A DNA stretch of 64,000 nucleotides from positions 220,549 to 284,548 of the forward strand of contig CAVYYM010000033.1 of NCBI GenBank assembly GCA_963772715.1, in the 5' to 3' direction. Positions 444 to 63,666 of the stretch are shown here, piece by piece; the stretch's first letter is position 1, and the number at the start of each line of letters is the position of its first letter. Source of the stretch: an uncultured Bacteroidota bacterium (GTDB taxonomy: Bacteria > Bacteroidota > Bacteroidia > Bacteroidales > VadinHA17). The position numbers and the translations under genes were made by a program. Under the pieces are notes generated by a model that saw only the letters and a program-made list of their open reading frames with translations, was not told the origin of the DNA and did not search any database.

Positions 444-2003
444 CTAGGTCAGGTCTATCTCATTTTCATCCCTGTCGTAGAAATGATATTCGAGCATATG
501 ATAGGAGGTCACTGGCTGTACCTTAAGGCTGATCTTGTATTTCAGGTCCCATTTTCTGTAGATCGGGAATAAACCTTTCTTCAGCCAGGCAGCTACGAAA
601 GGATGGACATTAAGTATCAGTCTTTTTGTTTTTATCTTATCGACGATAAATGCGAGCTGGCTTTGGAGCTCATCGGTGAACAGGATCGTTGGTTTTATTT
701 CTCCAGTCCCCTGGCAGGAAGGACATTTTTCGTCGGTTACAATGTTCATTTCCGGCCTTACTCTCTGACGGGTAATCTGCATCAGGCCGAATTTCGTGAG
801 CGGCAGGATATTGTGCTTGGTCCTGTCGTTTGCCATCACCTCCTTCATCTTGTCGAACAAGGATTGCTTGTTTTCAGATGTCTGCATGTCGATGAAATCG
901 ATCACGATTATTCCGCCCATATCCCTGAGTCTCAGCTGACGGGCTATTTCAGTTGCCGCTTCCATGTTCACCTCCAGGGCATTCAGTTCCTGGTCGTTGC
1001 CTTTTCGGGAGCGGTTGCCGCTGTTCACATCGATCACATGAAGTGCTTCTGTATGGTCAATAATAAGGTATGCTCCATGCTTGAACGAGACAGTCTTGCC
1101 GAAGAGGGCTTTTATCTGCTTATTGATGTCAAAGTGGTCAAATATCGGGATAGTTCCCTTGTAGATCTTGACGATCTTTGACTTCTCAGGTGCTATCTCC
1201 TTGATATACTTGCGTATATCATCAGCCAGAGAGGGGTCGTTAGTGTAAATGCTGTTGAAAGTGACATTCAGCATATCCCTCAGGATGGTCGACGTCCTGT
1301 TCATCTCTCCAATAAACAGGCGCGGCGACTTTATTTCCTTTTTAACCGAAGTAAAAGCTGATTCCCATTTCCTGACCAGTTCCCTGAGTTCTGCATCGAG
1401 CACGGCCACTTTTTTACCTTCTGCGGCAGTTCTCACAATAACTCCATAGTTCCTGGGCTTGATGCTTTGGAGGAGAGTTTTCAGACGGTTCTTCTCATCG
1501 GAATTCTCAATCTTTGAAGAGATCGAGACTTTGTCAGAGTGAGGGATAAGAACAAGGTTTCTGCCTGCAAGCGAAATTTCGGAGGCCAGCCTGGGACCCT
1601 TTGTCGAAATAGGCTCCTTGGTTATCTGAACGATCACGGTTTGTCCCTGGGTAAGAACGTCGGTTATCTTGCCATCCTTGTCAATATCGGGTTCCGGCTT
1701 GAATTTATGGACAGGAACAACTTTCCCCTGCTTCTGCAGAGCTGAAATATAGTATTTGTGCTGTGTTCTGAATTGTGCGCCGAGGTCCAGGTAATGAAGG
1801 AACGCATCCCTCTCGTAACCTACGTTGACGAATGCGGCATTCAGTCCGGGCATGATCTTTTTCACCTTTCCCAGGTAAATATCGCCGACTGAAAACCTGA
1901 TATTGCGTTTTTCCTTGTTTAACTCAATTAACTGCTTGTCTTCCAACAACGCTAAAGAGACCTCGGAATCACTTGCATCAATGATGAGATCCTTATTTAC
2001 CAC
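444..2003 (-). CDS. rng: Ribonuclease G/E family (Rne/Rng)
   Basis: 519-aa ORF. It has an S1-like N-terminus (GDIYLGKVKKIMPGLNAAFVNVG) and an RNase E/G catalytic core (HTEALHVIDVNSG, GGIIVIDFIDM). Confidence 0.9.
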   Translation of the reverse strand: MVNKDLIIDASDSEVSLALLEDKQLIELNKEKRNIRFSVGDIYLGKVKKIMPGLNAAFVNVGYERDAFLHYLDLGAQFRTQHKYYISALQKQGKVVPVHKFKPEPDIDKDGKITDVLTQGQTVIVQITKEPISTKGPRLASEISLAGRNLVLIPHSDKVSISSKIENSDEKNRLKTLLQSIKPRNYGVIVRTAAEGKKVAVLDAELRELVRKWESAFTSVKKEIKSPRLFIGEMNRTSTILRDMLNVTFNSIYTNDPSLADDIRKYIKEIAPEKSKIVKIYKGTIPIFDHFDINKQIKALFGKTVSFKHGAYLIIDHTEALHVIDVNSGNRSRKGNDQELNALEVNMEAATEIARQLRLRDMGGIIVIDFIDMQTSENKQSLFDKMKEVMANDRTKHNILPLTKFGLMQITRQRVRPEMNIVTDEKCPSCQGTGEIKPTILFTDELQSQLAFIVDKIKTKRLILNVHPFVAAWLKKGLFPIYRKWDLKYKISLKVQPVTSYHMLEYHFYDRDENEIDLT

Positions 2004-14378: not shown

Positions 14379-15242
14379 TCAGTATTTCTCAGGAACAAAT
14401 GTCTGATCGGTCATCGGGGGCCTTACATAGGCTACATCATGTTTCAAGGGGGGCAGCTTGAAGGGTTTGGGGGTCAGGTCTTTATACGGGATCAGTGTCA
14501 GGAGGTGGTTGATCGTATTGAGCCTGGCTCTCTTCTTGTCGTCGGCGCGGACAACGTACCATGGTGATTGTTTGGTATCGGTATAGGAAAACATCTTGTC
14601 TTTGGCCATTGAATATTCCACCCATTTATCGCGCGATTCAACATCCATAGGGCTTATCTTCCATCGCTTTGTCGGATCCTGGATCCTGTCCTGAAACCTC
14701 TTTTCCTGCTCATGGTCGCTCACTGAGAACCAGTATTTGATAAGGATAATTCCTGATCTGATCAGCATTTTTTCGAATTCGGGACAAGATCTGAGGAACT
14801 CCTCATATTCTTCGTTTGTACAATAACCCATTACCTTTTCCACCCCAGCCCTGTTGTACCAGCTCCTGTCGAAAAGGACTATCTCCCCGCCGGCAGGGAG
14901 CTGTGTCACATAACGCTGAAAATACCATTGCGATTTTTCCTTTTCGGTGGGAGTACCAAGAGCGACTATCCTGCAGATCCTTGGATTAAACAGCCTGCAA
15001 TTGTTTTATAACCCCTCCTTTGCCAGCTGCGTCCCTTCCTTCAAAGATCACAACAACTTTGAGCTTATTTGCCTTTACCCACTCCTGAAGCTTCACAAGC
15101 TCTATCTCCATTTTCAGAAGGCTTTTTTCAAAATCACAGAACCAAGCTTTTCCTTCTGTTCCTGTTTTACATCATGATAAAGATCTTCCTTATCAAATTT
15201 CCTGACAGCAGCTTTCTTTTTCTTCTTATCGTGTGATCCCAT
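14379..15242 (-). pseudogene. ppk2: Polyphosphate kinase 2 (PPK2) with two opposite frameshifts
   Basis: ORF 14379..14909 encodes only the C-terminal two thirds (LPAGGEIVLFDRSWYNRAGVE...). Upstream, the Walker A segment EIELVKLQEWVKANKLKVVVIFEGRDAAGKGGVIKQL lies in a second frame, and MGSHDKKKKKAAVRKFDKEDLY... lies in the original frame. ATG at 15242 to the stop is 864 nt, so the net shift is zero. Confidence 0.8.
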
Positions 15243-15271
15243 GGCAAAAAGATTAGAATAAAGAAGAAAGA

Positions 15272-15305
15272 TAATAAAAAATCCTGAAAATCAAGATTTT
15301 CAGGA
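15272..15305 (-). terminator. Intrinsic terminator
   Basis: On the minus strand, a 10-bp perfect stem TCCTGAAAAT/ATTTTCAGGA with a CTTG loop is followed by TTTTTTATTA. Confidence 0.6.
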
Positions 15306-15307
15306 AT

Positions 15308-15400
15308 TAAAGTTTAAAGTGCCTAAAGTTTGGAGTACTAAAGTTAAAAGGATTAATTATGATTATAACTAACTCTAAGTACTTTAGGCACTCCAAACTA
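15308..15400. repeat. Tandem-unit hairpin, locus H (units around CTAAAGT / ACTTTAG)
   Basis: AGTGCCTAAAGT (15318-15329) pairs perfectly with ACTTTAGGCACT (15381-15392). Flanking units (AGTTTAA.., TTGGAGT, ACTAAAGTT versus AACTCTAAGT, CCAAACT) extend an imperfect long stem. Confidence 0.6.
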
Positions 15401-15482
15401 TTGTATAAAGGGTATTGCCAGCGGATATTTGAATTTCTCTCCTTTTGGAGCTTTTATGCTTGCAATGATTATACATATGATT

Positions 15483-15740
15483 TTAAGTGTTACCAGGAAC
15501 ATCAATAATCGGGATGCCAACAATGATGAACAGAAGAGGAATAGTAAGCACGATATAAAGCAGGATCGAAAGCTGAAAGTTCATTGAAGCTTTGCCGTTG
15601 TCATCGACCCATGCAGATTCGTCTTTTCGGGAGAACCAGCAGATCAGAGGACCTATTATACCTCCGAAGGGAAAAAAGAACATGCAAAGCCTGAAAGATG
15701 ACAGAGCATAGCCCAGTTCCTTTCCGATTCTGATAATACT
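15483..15740 (-). pseudogene. DUF4870-like small membrane protein, frameshifted
   Basis: ORF 15483..15683 starts mid-domain (FFFPFGGIIGPLICWFSRKDESAWVDDNGKASMNFQLS). The expected upstream motif NWAMLCHLSGFA lies in another frame. The junction is at an A6/T6 run near 15673-15680. The 5' limit is approximate. Confidence 0.6.
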
Positions 15741-15806
15741 TTAATCTCTTCCTTTGCCTTAAGCTGTTGTTTATTAAAAAGACGGAATTATTTTGATCAA
15801 TGATGC

Positions 15807-16130
15807 ATTATTCAAATCTTGAAAGCCGTTTCAGGTCAGAAGGCAGAAGTCCGTTCGGATTGGATTTATCGATAGTAGTGAAGATTATAATAATACATAT
15901 TGGCATCATCGGTGCCTATAAACATTTTAAAGCAATATCCTTCATCCTTTTCTCTCCCCACAGGCCCAACCTTATGCAGAAAAACAGTGTCGGAGCTTTT
16001 GCTCTATTGCTTCCACAATTTCCTCTTCGGCACAATCTCCATCATTATATGAATATATAGCTTTTATCCTTGCAATAGTGCCGATATCAGGAGTAAGGTC
16101 CTCCTGCTTTAACAAGATTGTCTTATTCAT
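15807..16130 (-). pseudogene. Small conserved-looking hypothetical protein, two frame changes
   Basis: Manual translation gives MNKTILLKQEDLTPDIGTIARIKAIYSYNDGDCAEEEIVEAIEQK.., then DTVFLHKVGPVGREKDEGYCFKMFIGTDDANMYYYNLH.. in a second frame, then TIDKSNPNGLLPSDLKRLSRFE* back in the first. The ATG overlaps the upstream stop (TAATG). Confidence 0.45.
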
Positions 16131-16667
16131 TATTCAGGGATATTCTCATTATAGTATTTCAGATATTTCCTTCCGGTTTTTGAAGGGTCCTCTCCATTAT
16201 CAGGTTGCATGCTTCTGCATAAATTCAAGTATGGCTCCAAGCTTATAGCCATATTCAAGATCATCTTCGCCTGCATATGAAAGAGGTACGGCACAAATTT
16301 CCGGCATTCTCACACAGCTTATCAACATTCTTTCCCTGAAGAAGGTTTATGAAATTAAAAACCGAATTTGTCTTATCATTTTCAAAATTGGTCTCCGTAA
16401 GGACAATGAAATGAATAATGCCGGTTTCAGCCGCCTGACATTGAATTCCTTGGCATCAATGAATTCATACGGAGTCATCTTCCAGTATTGCTTCATGGCA
16501 TCCTTAATATATGCATTAAATGCGGAAAAAGGGTCATCTTCAAGAACAACACATGTTTTTGATCCACTGAACTGCTTTATTTCATCCTTGTTTGGGAAGG
16601 GTGCCTGCCCTGCAAACCGATACAGGAAGGAGGACGGAACCGTGATAGAAAATAATATTTTCATCAT
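16130..16667 (-). pseudogene. Hypothetical protein, at least two frame changes
   Basis: ORF 16347..16667 (MKILFSITVPSSFLYRF...EFNVRRLKPA) continues plausibly only in other frames (IVLTETNFENDKTNSVFNFINLLQGKNVDKL; PLSYAGEDDLEYGYKLGAILEFMQKHA; ...YLKYYNENIPE*). Confidence 0.45.
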
Positions 16668-17415: not shown

Positions 17416-17518
17416 AACAATAGCGATTTACCTTTCCCGTTCAAATATCATACCGTTTGGGCAAAATTAACCATTTCCTTGAAAGGGTGTTAAATACGCG
17501 CTAATGATATATTTATTA

Positions 17519-17526
17519 TATATTTG
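17519..17526 (+). promoter_or_regulatory. Candidate -7 box (TATATTTG) upstream of the sensor kinase remnant
   Basis: Plus-strand match to TAnnTTTG in the AT-rich spacer. This is a motif match only. Confidence 0.25.
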
Positions 17527-17689
17527 CTTAATTTTACAAAATTCAAAAAAAACAGTATGGCCAAGGAAGCCGAGACAAGATAATAGTACAGATAATCAAA
17601 ACAGTACTGGCGAATCATATGAAAAGCACCGAAAGAAGATTCAAGATCTGTTCATACTTTGAGTCATTACAGGATAATCATTGCTCTAC

Positions 17690-18910
17690 TTATGCTTAAT
17701 GTTAATACTATAATCTTATTGCAGGAGTTATAATCATCATTGTCTGCATCCTGCATGGACGTACCTGATCAGGAAAGCCATCAGGACTTGATAAAGCGTA
17801 CAGGATTCATTAATGATGTATCATCCTCAATGAACAGAAAGATAATGTGATAACTGACTTTTCGCATAAGATCAGGGAACCTCTGAATAATCTCGTGATC
17901 ATTACCGATATGCTTATGGAGTCAGGCCTTCAGAAAAAGCAAAAGGAACTTCTGGAAACTTTTGTTGCCTCAACAAACAACATGGTTACATACTGTTAAT
18001 GAATTAACAATGCAATCGGCCGGTAATCTGAGCTATGAGACCAAGAAAACATATTAGGTTCAATCTTTTATCAACAATCCAGAACACAATAGAGCTTTAC
18101 AACCTTAAGGATAAGGCCAATATCGATTTTATTCTTAACAAAAAGGAATTCGGTGATTTTGAATGTTTTGGAGATCCAATAATTCTTAAACAGATATTCC
18201 TCGACATTTTCAACATAATTGAAACACAGAATACTCGGAAAGAACGACCAAAGTTACAATTAACCTGAAAAGGGAGAAAGAGACCGGAAACGAAAATCTT
18301 ATAGGATTCAGAATCCAGACTGACAAGAACATGGTACTGATAGATGAAAATGACTCTGAGCACAGTCTTGCTGCAAGACTTATTATCAACAGAAGGGCAC
18401 TTACAGCCAGGAATCAGGAACAGAATTACACCGTTCTGAATATAACTCTTCCGTTTGCAAAAGTGTCCATGAGACAAAACAAATATTGCCTCCCAGAAAA
18501 TTGAAGAGCTGATTCAGAAGGAAAAGGTTCATAAGGAGCTGAAAGACATTAAGATACTTCTGGTTGAAGATAACCTGATAAACCAGAAAATAACACTTCT
18601 CACCCTTAAACCGCTTGTAAGCAGTATTGATACTGCATCCAACGGAAAAGAGGCTCTCGATAAATTCGGCACTGCCAACTACGACCTGATACTGATGGAT
18701 ATCCAGATGCCTGTAATGAGCGGACTTATTGCAGCAGAAAAGATCAGAGCACTTGAGTCAAGTACCAATACCCATGTTCCGATAATTGCAATAACTGCAA
18801 ATGCAATGATCGGCGATAAGGAAAAATGCATCTCTGCAGGAATAGATGATTATATCAGCAAGCCATTCCAGCCATCAGCCCTGATTGAAAAGATCAAGAA
18901 ATTCATTTAG
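17690..18910 (+). pseudogene. Hybrid sensor histidine kinase / response-regulator receiver, fragmented by at least four frame changes
   Basis: The H-box FSHKIREPLNNL sits at about 17859. A degenerate HATPase region follows (ORF 18035..18268, then ...YTVLNITLPFAKV). An open REC-domain frame runs 18473..18910 ([16 protein letters not shown]...[14 protein letters not shown]...ITANAM...DDYISKPF) with no upstream ATG. The 5' limit is approximate. Confidence 0.7.
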
Positions 18911-19941
18911 TTCTCCTGAAAGAGGTTTGAATCCGATGACCATCATGTCATCGATCTGCTGATTGCCCGCCATCCATGTTTTTATATTTTCATCCAGAAT
19001 CGATTTCTGGTCATTGACCGGGAAACTGTGAATCCGTGTAAGCAGATACCTGAACCTCCTGTACATGAACTTCTTGTTTTCGGTGCCTCCAAACTGGTCA
19101 ACATAGCCATCGGAAAATATATAAAGAATATCATTGTCAAGCAGTCCAGCTCATGGGATGTGTATTCCATCCTTTCAGGATTCATGCCGATAATTATTTT
19201 GTCTCCCTTTAACTCGGTAAGGGTATTGTCGCGGATAAGGTAAAGCGGAAAAAAGGCTCCGGAATACTCAAGTTTTCTTTTCTTCCTGTCAATGACGCAG
19301 AGACCTATATCCATACCATCCCTGATAATTGTTCCCATATTCTTTTCCCTGCTGAATGTTTTTTCAAGAGCCCTGTTCATTACAGCCAGAATTGCTGAAG
19401 GCTTTTCAATATTATCTTCGAGTATTGCTTTTTCGATTATCTCCAGACCCACCATCGACATCAGGGCTCCGGGCACACCGTGTCCGGTGCAATCGGCGGC
19501 AACAACGAAAATCTTGCCTCCCTTTTCACCGATCCAGTAAAAATCGCCGCTGACAATATCCTTCGGCCTGAAAAAAATAAAGGAGTCACTGAAATGTTTT
19601 CTGAAAAACACCTCGGACGGCAAAAGGGCTTCCTGTATCCTCTGTGCATATATCAGACTGTCAGTCAGATTTTTGTCCCGCAGTTCAAGTTCATGCTTCT
19701 GCTTTTCAATCTGTTCAAGAGCCTGCTCCTTTTCCTTCAGCACCTGACGGGTTAAAAACAGACTCCGTGTCTGGGATATAATTGAAATGAGAAGAAAAGC
19801 CAGCGCAATGAAAAGAAGAATTCTCATTGAAAACTCAGGGAGATTCAACCATACGTTGTACAGTGAACCTGCAGGCGCAAAACAAAACACCGAACATGGC
19901 AGATAACCATATATCAGAAGAGTACTCATGCTATTCTGCAA
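18875..19941 (-). pseudogene. Membrane-anchored PP2C/SpoIIE-family serine phosphatase, one frameshift
   Basis: ORF 18982..19941 contains the SpoIIE core (SGDFYW...VAADCTGHGVPGALMS...). After ..YTSHELD the homologous continuation LLDNDILYIFSDGYVDQFGG..MYRRFRYLL.. lies in the frame of ORF 18875..19066. The total length is 1067 nt, not a multiple of 3. The junction is near 19140-19150. Confidence 0.75.
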
Positions 19942-19990: not shown

Positions 19991-21811
19991 TCAGAAATTT
20001 ACATTTACTTCGTCAAAGCCGGGAAATGACAGATGTGAGTTCTTTATGGAAGGAGAAGGGATAAAAGGACCGAGTTCAAGAGATCCCCACTTTTTGTCGA
20101 TGGCATCGACAGTGTCTCGTGAGGAAACGACTACATTAGGCCATTTTCGCAAGAAACCGCCTTCGCGGAAAGCTTTGGCTGTGCCATCGATGAAAAGCAG
20201 GTTCTCAGAAAGCAGTTCTGTATCACGCAGGGGATCCGAATTGCCGAGAACCTGCCATGCAACCTGGTATAAATCATTAACATCCACGGTTTTATCAACA
20301 GCGAGTATCAGCCGGAGATCATCCTGAATGTGAATTGCCTCCAATTCCTTTTTTGCTTTTCTGACTGCCTGCCGATCTTCAGCCTGGTTCAGTCCCGTAA
20401 CAATCATTCTCCTTCCATCAGAAGGATGAGGCGGTATTGTCTCAGGCATCTCTTCATCAAGCTTCATAGTGGCATCAACACCCAGTTTGCCTCCGAGGGC
20501 AGGTATCTCGGAAGTATGGTCAAGCACATCGAGCGGACCTGACATAAAGAGCAGATCCTTATTGAATGCAGCATTCCTGAAAACATGATCCATAACCTGA
20601 CTGTAATTCCTGATATCGACATCACCGCTTACAACCACAAGATATTTGGTGAACATCATCTGTCCTGCTCCGAACAATGAGCTTATGACTTTCTTGCCCT
20701 GGCCAGGGTATGATTTCCTGATCTTTACTATTACCAGGTTATGGGCAACACCAGCTGCAGGCATGTGAAAGTCTTCTAATTCGGGCAGGATCGCCAGTCT
20801 TAGCGGTGCCAGAAAGATCTTTTCAGTCGCTTTGGCCAGCCAGGCATCCTCCATAGGCGGAATACCGACAATGGTTGCAGGGTAGACAGCTTTCCGGGAA
20901 TGAGTTATGCATGTCACATGAAATCGCGGATAGAAATCGGCCAGGGAATAAAAGCCCGTATGGTCGCCAAAGGGTCCTTCAAGCACGGGTTCTTCTGCAG
21001 GATCGACATACCCTTCAATGACTATATCTGCATCTGAAGGAACATAGAGGTCATTGGTAAGGCATTTTACCAGCTTTACCTTTTTCTTCCTGAGAAATCC
21101 CGCAAGAACATACTCGTCGATGTTTTCAGGCAATGGTGCAGTCGATGCGTATGTGTATACCGGATCTCCTCCCAGGGCTACGGAAACAGGCATTTTCCCA
21201 CCGGTTTTCTTCCATTCCCCGAAATGGACTGCACCTGTTTTATGTCGCTGCCAGTGCATCGCAGTGGTCTTATTATCAAGTATCTGCATCCTGTACATCC
21301 CGACATTTGTTTTACCTGTGACAGGATGCACTGTATGGACCATAGGAAGGGTGATGAAGCGGCCGCCGTCATGAGGCCAGCATTTGAGGACAGGAAGAAT
21401 AGAGAGGTCGGGCTCCCGGTGGATCACCTGCTGGCAGGCACCTTTGCCTTTACTGCGGACAGGAAGGTAACCTGAGATCTTTATCAATGAGGGCAGGGAA
21501 GATATTTTTTTCAGCAGATTGTCTTTTGAGTCAGTAAGAGCAGAGAATGTATCTGCAAGATCATTTGCTGCCTCCTCCAGGTCTTTCCTGCTTATGGCCA
21601 TTGCCATCCGTTCATCGGTACCGAAAGCATTAATGAGTAGTTGAAAGGACGTGCCGGTATTTTCGAAGAGCAGGGCTTTCCCTCCGGATTTGGATATGCG
21701 GTCGGTGACTTCGGTTATTTCCAGAACAGGATCGACGAATACACGGATCCGATGAAGCTCTGAATGCTTTTCCAGATCGTTGATGAAATCGGATAGGCCG
21801 TGATATGGCAT
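19991..21811 (-). CDS. UbiD-family decarboxylase (menaquinone-biosynthesis-decarboxylase-like long form)
   Basis: The ORF spans 19991..21889. The likely start is MPYHGLSDFINDLEKHSELHRIRVFVDPVLEITEV at 21811. UbiD core motifs run throughout (ALLFENTG, RMQILD, GGDP). Confidence 0.85.
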   Translation of the reverse strand: MPYHGLSDFINDLEKHSELHRIRVFVDPVLEITEVTDRISKSGGKALLFENTGTSFQLLINAFGTDERMAMAISRKDLEEAANDLADTFSALTDSKDNLLKKISSLPSLIKISGYLPVRSKGKGACQQVIHREPDLSILPVLKCWPHDGGRFITLPMVHTVHPVTGKTNVGMYRMQILDNKTTAMHWQRHKTGAVHFGEWKKTGGKMPVSVALGGDPVYTYASTAPLPENIDEYVLAGFLRKKKVKLVKCLTNDLYVPSDADIVIEGYVDPAEEPVLEGPFGDHTGFYSLADFYPRFHVTCITHSRKAVYPATIVGIPPMEDAWLAKATEKIFLAPLRLAILPELEDFHMPAAGVAHNLVIVKIRKSYPGQGKKVISSLFGAGQMMFTKYLVVVSGDVDIRNYSQVMDHVFRNAAFNKDLLFMSGPLDVLDHTSEIPALGGKLGVDATMKLDEEMPETIPPHPSDGRRMIVTGLNQAEDRQAVRKAKKELEAIHIQDDLRLILAVDKTVDVNDLYQVAWQVLGNSDPLRDTELLSENLLFIDGTAKAFREGGFLRKWPNVVVSSRDTVDAIDKKWGSLELGPFIPSPSIKNSHLSFPGFDEVNVNF

Positions 21812-21860
21812 AGAAAGATAAAAGACCAAAGATAAAAGATGGGGGTATATAAAACAATAA

Positions 21861-21888
21861 TGGGAACTATTCCGAGGAGTAGTTCCCA
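21861..21888 (-). terminator. Intrinsic terminator or attenuator hairpin about 50 nt upstream of the ubiD-family start
   Basis: On the minus strand, a 9-bp stem in TGGGAACTA-CTCCTCGGAA-TAGTTCCCA is followed by TTATTGTTTT. Confidence 0.55.
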
Positions 21889-22355
21889 TCCACCGTTTAC
21901 GACCGAAGCCGTTAACGGAGTCGGATTACTGTTATTCCGGCCGGCTGCATTACAGGTCTTACGATCTGGTTTTGCAACCCATGGCTTTCAGGTCCTGCTT
22001 GTTATGGCAGATCCTTACGGCTGTCCTTTTTTTCCAGCCTTTCGGCCGGACATTCCAGGACGAAGTGTCCTTCAGGCTCCGGTGACATTTCCCGGAGGAT
22101 TTGTTACCAGTTTCAGTTGACTTGGGGCCGAAGCCCTTCGTTTCCCTGAAGCCCTGTGACCCAGTCGTTGAAAGAACGTTTCCGGTTTTCTACGACCTGC
22201 TGAACATCCGGGATTGGTCTGGGACCAGGTTCCCTTTGCTCAGGTTTCGGCTCTCTTGATGCGCAGACCCGAGGGTCTGAATGATCCGGATTGTGTTTCA
22301 TTTAAGTAACCTTTTCCGGTTCCACATCGTTCAAGCAGCCTTTTATCGCTCACCC
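21861..22355 (-). ncRNA. Candidate structured RNA of unknown class (about 0.5 kb)
   Basis: It fills the 580-nt spacer between the eno stop and the ubiD start. It is visibly more GC-rich than its flanks. On the minus strand it has several short helices closed by UUCG, GAAA or CUCG loops (22264-22279, 22125-22136, 22058-22070, 22034-22049, 21900-21923) and a CUCCGG/CCGGAG helix. There is a 5' -7 box and a 3' terminator. ORFs in the region have non-protein-like composition. The class is unassigned. Confidence 0.35.
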
Positions 22356-22362
22356 GATAGAT

Positions 22363-22370
22363 CAAATATA
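22363..22370 (-). promoter_or_regulatory. Candidate -7 box (TATATTTG) upstream of the structured region
   Basis: The minus strand reads TATATTTG within an AT-rich tract about 100 nt downstream of the eno stop. This is a motif match only. Confidence 0.3.
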
Positions 22371-22469
22371 TATCAAGAATATCAAAAAACCATGTAAACG
22401 AAACCCATGTTGTAAACCCGATATAAACAGGAGTTATCAACAATTGTTAATAACGCCGGAAAGGGTCCA

Positions 22470-23753
<1,284 letters not shown>

Positions 23754-23846: not shown

Positions 23847-24386
23847 CTACTTTTCCTCTTCCTTTGACTCTTTATCAGCGGGAGCTTCTTTTTTTGCAGA
23901 TGGTTCCTCAGTTTTTTCAGCAACTGTTACAGCAGTTTTTTCTGCACCTTCAGTCTTCTTCTTCGAAGGTGATCTTCTTCTACGCGTCGTTTTGGTTTTT
24001 GCACCTTCGCCTCCGCCCATCATGGCTTCGTTGTAATCGACCAGCTCCAGTATGCACATTTCGGCGTTATCACCGATCCTGTTTCCTGTTTTCAATATAC
24101 GGGTATAACCTCCGTGCCTTTCAGCAATCTTGGGTGAAATTTCCCTGAAAAGCTCAGCTACAGCCTTCTTGTCTTTAAGGAAGCTGAAAACCTCTCTCCT
24201 TGAGTGTGTTGAATCCTCCTTCGACTTTGTGATAATCGGTTCAACATAAGTCCTGAGAGCTTTTGCCTTCGCTGTAGTAGTGGTGATCCTTTTATGCATG
24301 ATAAGCGAGGCAGCCATATTTGAAAGCATCGACTTCCTGTGTGAACTCGTCCTTCCCAAATGATTTATAACTCTTGAATGTCGCAT
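23847..24386 (-). CDS. rplQ: 50S ribosomal protein L17 (with Lys/Glu-rich C-terminal extension)
   Basis: 179-aa [28 protein letters not shown]... is canonical L17. It is the last gene of the alpha operon. Confidence 0.95.
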
Positions 24387-24413: not shown

Positions 24414-25406
24414 TTAATCTTTCTCTAACTTGTATTTGCTCACATCCATCCCGAACGAAAGATTCATTGATTCGAGAAGCTCGTCGAGCTCTGTAAGTGA
24501 TTTTTTTCCAAAGTTCCTGAACTTGAGAAGGTCGTTCTTGTTGAATTTAACAAGGTCGCCAAGTGTCTCAACCTCAGCGGCTTTGAGGCAGTTCAATGCT
24601 CTGACTGAAAGATCGAGATCGATCAGTTTTGTTTTGAGCAGTTGTCTCATATGCAGTACTTCTTCATCAAATTCCTCATTTGCCAGCTTATCGTCTGAAT
24701 CGAGGGTTATCTTTTCATCCGAGAAGAGCATGAAATGATATATCAGGATCTTGGCAGCTTCCTTGAGCGCTTCCTTGGGATGTATCGATCCGTCGGTTTC
24801 AATTTCAAAGAGAAGCTTCTCATAATCAGTCTTTTCCTCAACACGGTAGTTTTCGATGGAATACTTCACATTTCTTACCGGTGTGAAGATGGAATCGATT
24901 GCAATAAGGCCAAATTCAGCGTCGGCAGGTTCATTCTCCTCTGCCGGGACATATCCGCGTCCCTTGCTGATTGAAAGGTCAAGATGGAGCTTTACATCGG
25001 GCTCCATTCTGAAGAGGACAAGTTCGGGATTGAGAATCTCGAAGCTGCTCAACGAATTATTCAGATCTCCGGCCTTGAATACTTCCTTGTTGTGGATCTT
25101 GACGGTGACTTTTTCCTGATCGACGTCCTCGACGGTTCTTTTGAACCTTACCTGTTTCAGGTTAAGAATGATCTCGGTCACATCTTCAATGACACCTGTA
25201 ATGGTGGAGAACTCGTGGTCGATGCCATCGATCTTTATGGCGGTGATTGCAAATCCTTCGAGTGAAGAGAGGAGTATTCTTCTCAGTGCATTACCTACAG
25301 TAATACCATAGCCAGGTTCAAGTGGACGGAACTCGAATTTGCCGAGTTTGTCGTCCGCTTCCAGCATTATTACTTTGTCGGGCTTCTGGAATGATAATAT
25401 GGCCAT
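24414..25406 (-). CDS. rpoA: DNA-directed RNA polymerase subunit alpha
   Basis: 330-aa ORF with the N-terminal dimerisation domain and the C-terminal domain ([21 protein letters not shown]). Confidence 0.97.
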
Positions 25407-60350: not shown

Positions 60351-60993
60351 TTATTTATTCACGTTTAATGATTTCTTCCATTCTATCAGCCCCACGAACG
60401 ACATAGCACAATATACAATATATAGTATTACTGTCGGATACAGATCCCTGGTAAAAAAGAGCGCCGCGGCAGCTAATATTGACAACAATCCACAGAAACC
60501 AGTGTTCATAGATCTTCCGGGCCAGCATCCATGTTGCTATAACCGAAAGGGAGGTTATAAACGAATCCCACGCGGGCACCGGCGAATCAGTAAGTCTGTC
60601 AAGTATAATCCACATCAGGAAAAACAATAGCAGGAATACCACAGTAAGAATTATTCCTGTATTACCAGTTTAAGTCTGGTTACTTTTAGCTTTTCTTTGC
60701 TCAAATGCACCTGTCGCCGTCCTCGATAGCTATTCAGCTGAGCCTGCGCCTCGCCTATCGCCTTTGATCCACCAATACCATCCCAAAATACTGATAACCA
60801 GATAATATCCCTGAAGGCTCATATCTGCATAAAGCTTACCTGTGAAGAATATCCATATATAAACCGCAGATGTTATAATCCCCACCGGCCACAGCCAGAT
60901 ATTCTGTCTGATTTCCAGTATCACATACAGTATTCCGGTGACTGCTCCGAAAAGTTCAATATAATTATTTGATATCCAGTCAGATATAATCAT
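60351..60993 (-). pseudogene. pnuC: PnuC-family (PnuT-like) vitamin transporter, at least three frame changes
   Basis: ORFs 60730..60993 and 60355..60642 are PnuC-like (WPVGIITSAVYIWIFF; SLSVIATWMLARKIYEHWFLWIVVN). In-frame stops lie between them. The conserved C-terminus LAAAALFFTRDLYPTVILYIVYCAMSFVGLIEWKK lies in another frame and ends at 60351. Confidence 0.75.
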
Positions 60994-63504: not shown

Positions 63505-63595
63505 CAGGATACTCTTCGTTCCCTCCGCCGGCATTATCCGGATCAGGTTTTAAGGGTATGATCTCAGCCTGTAATATTAAGGCACCCCATTTTCA
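63505..63595 (-). promoter_or_regulatory. TPP (THI-box) riboswitch
   Basis: The minus strand reads GGGGUGCCUUAAUAUUACAGGCUGAGAUCAUACCCUUAAAACCUGAUCCGGAUAAUGCCGGCGGAGGGAACG. It matches the TPP aptamer consensus closely (GGGGUGC..GCUGAGA..ACCC..ACCUGAUCyGGAUAAUGCCrGCG.AGGGA). It ends about 55 nt upstream of the receptor ATG. Confidence 0.92.
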
Positions 63596-63666
63596 GAAAG
63601 CACAAAGTTAAAAACCTTTTCCCTGTATTGCAATTTTTTTTAAATTAGCATGGAAAAAACTGATCT

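Follow-up and report, generated by a model that had tools for sequence, protein, structure and literature searches.

A large structured non-coding RNA, probably a stand-alone gene absent from Rfam, in the eno-ubiD spacer of uncultured Bacteroidales

Bacterial non-coding RNAs (ncRNAs) longer than about 400 nucleotides (nt) and with dense covariation are rare. Those of known function are, to our knowledge, ribozymes or the cores of ribonucleoproteins (rRNA, RNase P, group I and group II introns, tmRNA), while the orphans OLE, ROOL, GOLLD and raiA each opened new biology. The locus considered here lies in a 64,000-nt stretch of contig CAVYYM010000033.1 from an uncultured bacterium of the Bacteroidales (the whole of this stretch is called the window below), on the minus strand of the spacer between eno (enolase) and a UbiD-family gene (ubiD). 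A reading of the window's sequence (the original prediction) had placed an unassigned structured RNA there. We consider it likely, with some room for doubt, that the spacer holds a stand-alone gene for a highly structured ncRNA of about 505 nt, of a family not in Rfam; by the tests applied, this family appears to be a new RNA class, without a relative among catalogued RNAs.

Of the described RNAs, OLE (RF01071) is comparable in several ways: it too is large (about 600 nt) and ornate, with many covarying helices and long invariant stretches, and it likewise belongs to one phylogenetic group from mostly anoxic habitats and has a core biochemistry that is obscure. OLE is an independent stable transcript, as the window RNA is predicted to be. 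OLE differs in being found in Firmicutes and usually beside its partner gene oapA, whereas the window RNA has Bacteroidales hosts, no conserved partner gene nearby and a dedicated upstream palindrome, and the two have no sequence or structure match. ROOL and GOLLD, which are typically found in prophages or near tRNA genes, share with the window RNA a size class, a multi-domain fold and a function that is not known. Unlike them, it is chromosomal and syntenic, is absent from the viral, phage and plasmid collections searched, and has no Rfam match. Both are large ornate RNAs seen by cryo-electron microscopy to form RNA-only multimers (PMC12286853); as large structured RNAs without protein partners they offer a precedent for RNA-only assembly.

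With type A RNase P RNA (RF00010) the window RNA shares a terminal helix joining the 5' and 3' ends, conserved junction and internal-loop nucleotides, and peripheral helices that vary between lineages. The P4 regions of RNase P are not present in it, its 5' block GAGCGAUAAAAG and 3' block AAUAACAGUA being arranged differently; by eye, GAGGAAAGUCC and ACAGAA...GGCUUA are not seen in the P4-type arrangement. An essential universal enzyme of this kind is further disfavoured because the family has tandem paralogues and a patchy distribution. The 6S and Bacteroidales-1 RNAs (RF00013, RF01685, RF01693) resemble it as stand-alone genes with their own promoter and terminator, beside a ribosomal-protein operon in Bacteroidetes. 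The window RNA is about 2.5 times larger and is branched around a five-way junction, whereas 6S RNA is a rod with a central bubble, and here again there is no Rfam match. The proposed transcription unit comprises:

21851-22357, minus strand: the ncRNA, about 505 nt (minimum free energy, homologues, covariation, no Rfam match)
22363-22370, minus strand: predicted -7 promoter box TATATTTG, consensus TAnnTTTG (read from the sequence and its conserved spacing)
21851-21890, minus strand: terminator hairpin GAUGGGAACUACUC-CUCG-GAAUAGUUCCCAUU, then the U-tract AUUGUUUU (sequence and conservation)

The minus strand of 21855-22375 folds to -193 kcal/mol, with z = -6.0 against dinucleotide-preserving shuffles, as compared with z = -4.4 for the plus strand; with the strong conservation and covariation described below, this upholds the original prediction of a structured RNA on the minus strand. 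The promoter box that it had named is present. TAnnTTTG is the -7 element of the Bacteroidetes primary sigma factor, and it stands 8-9 nt upstream of a conserved block, GGUGAGCG, in 102 of 107 unique homologous loci; P1, the helix that closes the RNA, therefore begins essentially at the predicted start. Transcription would start near 22356-22358: the 5' end is placed by the box and the start of P1, and the 3' end, likewise a prediction, by the U-tract of the terminator. TTG occurs within the 16-nt region upstream of the box in 91 of the 102 loci, a test too loose to support a -33 element. The predicted stem and U-tract also exist, as a hairpin somewhat longer than first drawn (21851-21890) with arms AUGGGAACUA...UAGUUCCCAU and the U-tract after them. 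In the 80-sequence alignment its 13 pairs are 98.8% paired, and it is kept in all full-length homologues; the stem core GGGAAC/GUUCCC is nearly invariant family-wide, and covariation is seen lower down, at the stem base, where AU becomes CG in L136 and L085. This hairpin, identified from sequence and conservation, is not listed by a consensus terminator scan, probably on account of a C/A mismatch in the stem, close to the loop.

Homologues were sought by several routes. An eno-based scan of one genome per species gave 80 loci; nhmmer finds the RNA in 6 of them, all from metagenome-assembled genomes (MAGs) of uncultured Bacteroidales or 'Rikenellaceae', in each case downstream of eno on the same strand. 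Metagenome contigs scanned with GGTGAGCGATAAAAGNCNGC, a 20-nt pattern from the invariant 5' block, yielded at least 120 loci, and every listed match (120/120) carries a homologue (nhmmer, 100-550 bits). Since such a pattern forces the 5' block to look invariant, loci were also retrieved through the neighbouring gene nspC, independently and without use of the RNA sequence. Four of these carry the RNA, three with the 5' block exactly; the fourth (L267, from a Draconibacterium sp. MAG) has UCAGACAAGCGAUAAAAG instead, keeps GCGAUAAAAG, and shows a matching change, GUCUGA, on the 3' side of P1. At this last locus (L267:11171-11700) the terminator stem is without its 3' half and is followed by about 2 kb without called genes, which could be an assembly problem or a disrupted copy.

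The homologues thus number at least 130 loci (120 metagenome, 6 MAG and 4 via nspC). After deduplication there are, among the matches listed, 95 full-length sequences, 47-99% identical to the window RNA. The carriers come from sediment, wetland and digester Bacteroidales, where the RNA is abundant. One lineage has a tandem pair of divergent family members, each with its own upstream elements (L097:250-1230, L136:60-800), arranged as a variant of about 690 nt, a GC-rich hairpin, palindrome and promoter, and then a 561-nt variant.

The consensus structure was obtained with RNAalifold from a sequence-based MAFFT alignment of 80 sequences, all pairs of which are below 93% identity. It has 118 pairs, which the counting tool splits into 24 helices, here merged to 22. 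Standard pairs occupy 93.6% of cells, against 27-44% in slid controls. Changes on both sides occur at 85 of the 118 pairs (48-56 in slid controls), cells with a change on both sides number 811 (167-226), and the covariation score is 0.318 (0.053-0.089). None of 500 column shuffles reaches any of these observed measures, and the top pairs by mutual information after average product correction are helix pairs.

Position p of the RNA corresponds to window coordinate 22361 - p. P1 links the 5' end with a segment about 70 nt before the terminator, closing the whole fold; inward from it come a purine-rich internal loop, P2, and a five-way junction with five helical domains:

22352-22357, minus strand: 5' strand of P1, UCGGGU, paired with 21921-21926 (AUCCGA); helix 1
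22341-22351, minus strand: internal loop, conserved purine-rich 5' strand GAGCGAUAAAA, opposite GGAAUAACAGUA at 21927-21938
22337-22340, minus strand: 5' strand of P2, GGCU, paired with 21939-21942 (GGCC) and closing the five-way junction; helix 2
22250-22336, minus strand: domain 1, helices 3-7, from covariation
22062-22248, minus strand: domain 2, helices 8-14, the largest, closed by GAAA/CUUC (22245-22248 with 22062-22065)
22023-22061, minus strand: domain 3, helices 15-16, GUCC/GGAC around a CCGGCC-GAAA-GGCUGG hairpin (22034-22049)
21984-22021, minus strand: domain 4, helices 17-18, GC/GC, A-rich internal loops, then GGAUCUGC/GCAGGACC with a conserved UAA.A loop
21943-21979, minus strand: domain 5, helix 19 (20 in the counting tool's numbering), GGUUGC/GCAGCC with a variable tip
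21891-21920, minus strand: 3' hairpin outside P1, CUCCGU..ACGG-CUUC-..UCGU..ACGGUG, helices 21-22

P1 covaries through UA/UG/CG and AU/GC exchanges, and in L267, which was found without the search pattern, it reads UCAGAC/GUCUGA. The second pair of P2 is AU in 39 cases, GC in 25 and GU in 15. The internal-loop strand at 22341-22351 is invariant in the 80-sequence alignment, an invariance partly imposed by the search pattern; its AGUA opposite GAG presumably resembles a loop-E (bulged-G) module. Domain 1 includes CAGACC-CUCG-GGUCUG (22264-22279) and a hairpin (22295-22310) whose CUUA loop (C55 U56 U57 A58) is invariant in the alignment, and it has changes on both sides at 5/5 pairs of helix 4, 7/7 of helix 5 and 5/6 of helix 7. 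The CUUA loop was considered as a T-box-like specifier and rejected: no T-box is matched, nor does the RNA lie upstream of an aminoacyl-tRNA synthetase gene.

Domain 2 consists of a hairpin at 22200-22243, the hairpin of the GUUCUUU strand at 22162-22197, and a variable sub-domain at 22067-22160 that is absent in L007-type variants of about 420 nt and enlarged in Prolixibacteraceae. GUUCUUU itself is nearly invariant and forms the 3' strand of the inner helix, the 5' partner of which changes between lineages. Double changes are found at 4/4 pairs of helix 15 and 5/5 of helix 16 in domain 3, which also gives top mutual-information scores, at 7/7 pairs of the long helix of domain 4 (19 in the counting tool's numbering), and at 5/6 and 4/4 pairs of the 3' hairpin, which is separate from the terminator. 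The invariant nucleotides of the RNA lie in the CUUA loop, GUUCUUU, AAUAACAGUA and GGGAAC/GUUCCC.

Several of the individual helices first proposed stand, with covariation behind them: 22264-22279, GGGC-UUCG-GCCC (22125-22136), 22034-22049 and the hairpin at 21891-21920. Others (GGAC-ACUUC-GUCC, CUCCGG/CCGGAG and the longer-range GAUCUG/CAGAUC) are not conserved pairings; their bases belong to the long-range helices 8, 11 and 15, to helix 14 and to the local helix 18, and some of them form a small UCC-UCCG-GGA hairpin whose loop is UUCG in the majority of relatives. The shortest natural variant is about 270 nt long (L085), the longest about 700 nt (L136, L086). The smallest (L085:10997-11299) keeps P1, the internal loop, P2, domains 1, 4 and 5, the 3' hairpin and the terminator and is without domains 2 and 3; an imperfect promoter box (TACTTTTA) raises the possibility that this copy is decaying.

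No known family had been recognised by eye in the original prediction, and a cmscan search of Rfam 15 (4227 families) bears this out, with nothing at the RNA at the gathering threshold. The sole Rfam match in the window is elsewhere, a TPP riboswitch (RF00059) at 63506-63599 on the minus strand (57.8 bits, gathering score 54.3). With permissive filters, 21750-22520 gives only chance hairpin matches at E <= 10 (mir-384, Y RNA, sar). Twenty divergent homologous loci give no gathering-level match; in 14 loci searched at E <= 10 no family recurs at the RNA, weak matches of the mir-33 and mir-2001 type being single. The OLE, ROOL, GOLLD, HEARO, raiA and RNase P models have no match at E <= 10 in that region or the 14 loci, and ARAGORN reports no tRNA or tmRNA gene in 21000-23000. 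The characteristic neighbours of OLE, ROOL, GOLLD and HEARO (oapA, a prophage or tRNA gene, and IscB) are not seen, though no search was aimed at oapA itself; beside the RNA stand either rpoA, rplQ, eno, ubiD together with a SpoIIE-like gene, or else nspC, GH29 and argS. In phage and plasmid collections blastn finds no match. In viral contigs the 15-mer GGTGAGCGATAAAAG has 65 matches, taken as chance since none carries the family by nhmmer, and the 3'-block pattern has none.

Upstream of the promoter, and outside the coordinates first proposed, lies an array of conserved DNA elements:

22433-22454: 22-bp DNA palindrome GTTATYAACAA/TTGTTRATAAC, in the window GTTATYAACAATTGTTRATAAC, a putative site of a dimeric DNA-binding protein
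22409-22429, minus strand: two half-site-like direct repeats, TGTTTATATC at 22420-22429 and GGTTTACAAC at 22409-22418

The palindrome (read as GTTATTAACAATTGTTGATAAC) starts 16 nt after the eno stop codon and occupies approximately -92 to -71 relative to the predicted transcription start. Among the matches listed, it is found at a fixed distance in 97 of 111 unique upstream regions, in all gene contexts and with even the most divergent RNA variants. Allowing up to 3 mismatches, there are 116 copies in the 2.05 Mb of collected sequence, every one of which (116/116) precedes a family member; the 64-kb window has one copy against none expected. Beyond the right half of the palindrome, at spacings of about 13 and 11 nt, come the repeats TGTT.A.A and GGTT.A.AAC, and information content is high at TGTT.A.A and GGT..A across 100 unique upstream regions; these repeats may also be protein sites.

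Asymmetries in the palindrome are one-sided: mirrored positions never change in compensation, and positions 6 and 17 vary independently (T/G 36, T/A 29, C/A 17, C/G 5). An RNA hairpin serving as eno terminator or processing site was therefore rejected, C/A combinations also being common. Judged from its sequence, this is the behaviour of a protein-recognised DNA site and not of an RNA helix, and the palindrome shows conservation of sequence instead of pairing, dyad symmetry and a fixed position relative to the promoter, as an operator would. We infer that the array is read by a dedicated DNA-binding regulator. The palindrome presumably resembles two imperfect DnaA boxes placed head to head, TTATNAACA against TTATNCACA. 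The half-site 9-mer TTATNAACA occurs 12 times in the window, where 3.1 +/- 1.8 are expected, with 10 of the 12 on the plus strand (including 16319, 18068, 18383, 20292, 31466 and 38212); two placed sites (20292 and 23539) fall inside genes, and TTATNCACA is not enriched in the window. Codon bias or a strand-skewed oligomer may account for this enrichment.

In about 85 loci, among the matches listed, the gene order is rpoA-rplQ-eno-RNA-ubiD-SpoIIE-like, three loci being without eno; in this group and in the window the RNA is 28-350 nt upstream of ubiD, on the same strand. The distance from eno to the RNA ranges from 61 to 1104 nt (61-360 nt in most loci), with one MAG having 1.1 kb between eno and the RNA gene (L003:5276-6378). 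About 24 loci have other neighbours, and the nspC retrieval names Prolixibacteraceae as hosts (relatives of Draconibacterium, Mariniphaga and Maribellus). In these hosts the RNA comes after carboxynorspermidine dehydrogenase, nspC, in some cases a hypothetical gene, and a GH29 fucosidase, in that order, and the next gene after the RNA, argS or an ABC-F gene, is convergent. The element thus does not always neighbour a UbiD-family gene, a point that the original prediction had raised for checking. No transposase, IscB/TnpB, reverse transcriptase or split host gene adjoins the RNA at the loci examined. On L159, of the same contig type as L152, a near-threshold match to group II intron domain 5/6 lies upstream of the RNA (1135-1225, minus strand; 38.6 vs 40 bits, E = 1.6e-4) with no eno within 1.2 kb upstream, an arrangement that points to an intron inserted between the two genes, eno and the RNA.

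In the window, the surrounding minus-strand genes are, in order:

24414-25406, minus strand: rpoA
23847-24386, minus strand: rplQ
22470-23747, minus strand: eno (enolase)
21809-21811, minus strand: start ATG of the UbiD-family gene, homologues of which begin MPYHG...
18982-19941, minus strand: SpoIIE-like phosphatase gene

The open reading frame (ORF) called for the UbiD-family gene (19991-21889, minus strand) overshoots the real start by 78 nt, crossing the RNA terminator hairpin, so automatic annotation could mis-call this start. With the ATG at 21809-21811 and not at 21889, the first in the ORF, the spacer is 658 nt and not the 580 nt first given. Its description as GC-rich was accurate (53% G+C in 21900-22300 against 37-45% on the flanks, the minus strand there being A-rich). 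It had also been called by far the largest non-coding stretch next to core genes; among all stretches of the window free of long ORFs and at least 540 nt in length it has the highest GC content and is not the longest. Four others (15006-16248, 2007-2816, 17494-18096 and 60351-60972) run for 600-1240 nt without a frame of at least 120 codons, at 33-42% GC and with no Rfam match. Between the RNA terminator and the ubiD ATG, 21811-21850 consists of repeated TCTTTTATC / TCTTTGG units, the copy number of which varies among relatives (e.g., L092, L166, L104); several copies generate TAnnTTTG boxes.

Could the structure belong to something other than a gene of its own? The original prediction had offered a leader or attenuator of the decarboxylase gene beside a stand-alone ncRNA, and it is the latter that fits. 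A long cis-acting leader (riboswitch or attenuator) controlling the UbiD-family gene through the terminator at 21851-21890 would account for the position of the RNA upstream of ubiD, on the same strand and terminator-ended, in the window and about 85 loci, and an antiterminator could in principle form between the conserved GUUCUU and GGGAAC of the terminator (with two G-U pairs). That pairing was set aside, as some 300 nt separate the candidate strand from the terminator, all lineages pair this strand within a hairpin of its own, and it is absent in L085, which keeps the terminator; no antiterminator overlapping the terminator and no riboswitch family match were found in the searches above. 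In Prolixibacteraceae and other lineages, moreover, the RNA is not beside ubiD, the downstream gene being convergent or varied, and in 48 of 62 relatives a predicted TAnnTTTG box belonging to ubiD itself precedes its ATG by 18-29 nt (21827-21834 in the window). Because contexts differ and ubiD has its own box, the RNA is better read as an independent gene, and a leader is very unlikely. Its place downstream of rpoA-rplQ-eno, on the same strand, in the group of about 85 loci would also suit a processed eno 3' untranslated region or the tail of the ribosomal-protein/rpoA-rplQ-eno transcript. This is harder still to credit, given a promoter box at fixed spacing in nearly all loci, an upstream site array in all contexts, the variable distance from eno, the three loci without it, and the Prolixibacteraceae-type group, in which the RNA follows unrelated genes.

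Another candidate is a highly diverged relative of a large RNA already described (RNase P RNA, tmRNA, 6S/Bacteroidales-1, OLE, ROOL, GOLLD, HEARO/omega RNA, or a group I/II intron remnant), suggested by the closing helix, the conserved junction nucleotides and the variable peripheral helices, a general resemblance to RNase P RNA and other large RNAs. It is largely refuted, and we hold it to be about as improbable as the leader: apart from the chance hairpins, cmscan of the window RNA and 14 divergent homologues against the 4227 families turns up nothing even at E <= 10, no tmRNA or tRNA is reported by ARAGORN, no mobile-element gene or split host gene adjoins, and the RNA is single-copy, syntenic and absent from the viral, phage and plasmid collections. 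A decayed coding or small-protein gene, with the RNA structure incidental, is refuted for practical purposes. ORFs of 52-93 codons do overlap the region on both strands, but the three that had been judged non-protein-like indeed have no Pfam match, and of the 351 indels seen in relatives that share at least 70% identity with the window RNA, 330 are out of frame and 21 in frame, so the region is not coding. The start ATG of the 62-codon ORF is not conserved, being CTG or TCG in 18 of 80 homologues, and compensatory changes at 85 base pairs are not expected from coding constraint.

Against the reading as a stand-alone gene of a new family stand several further points. The structure was derived from the same alignment on which it is scored, which inflates agreement somewhat, chiefly the percentage of paired cells (93.6%); even so, independent pair types are far more numerous than in the controls. 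Most homologues were gathered with the 5'-block pattern, so the sample is skewed in favour of that block and relatives further away stay hidden. The 5' and 3' ends, the stability of the RNA and its action in trans are all inferred. No partner protein gene is conserved beside it, leaving the idea of a ribonucleoprotein without direct support from the neighbourhood, and no regulator candidate is conserved near the palindrome. The literature searched holds no description of either the RNA or the palindrome motif; its coverage is incomplete, and an earlier description of the RNA is possible.

If the RNA is nevertheless the product of its own gene, a putative DNA-binding factor would control its transcription from the palindrome array, and the RNA would be released as a stable molecule acting in trans and not on ubiD or eno. 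It would then serve as a ribonucleoprotein scaffold, a catalytic RNA or a self-assembling RNA, one of these being suggested by its size, its many covarying helices and its invariant junction and loop nucleotides. With its covarying helices, invariant nucleotides and gain and loss of peripheral domains, it is more like a ribonucleoprotein scaffold or a ribozyme, unlike antisense regulators, and an antisense role is unlikely. On our analysis, a protein-binding scaffold may be the most likely role, with a chance of about one in three; next would come catalysis or self-assembly, with some other role covering the remainder. Bolder, and rather doubtful, is the proposal that the RNA founds a new functional class, either as a large ribozyme or as the builder of a multimeric machine, RNA-only or RNA-protein, which would be confined to anaerobic Bacteroidales and turned on by a dedicated DNA-binding regulator through the palindrome array. 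More speculative is the idea that the invariant AAUAAC/GAUAA loop mimics the operator half-site (TRATAAC), titrating the regulator as a feedback decoy.

What this adds is a new orphan RNA family whose natural variants, from about 270 to 700 nt, define a minimal core. Gene calls currently show the element as an empty spacer or as spurious small ORFs, and the alignment could seed a covariance model for annotating it in genomes and MAGs. The operator-like array upstream is highly specific, is unusual for large orphan RNAs and offers a way in for experiments: once the palindrome's binding factor is known, it should become apparent when the RNA is synthesised, and hence what it does.

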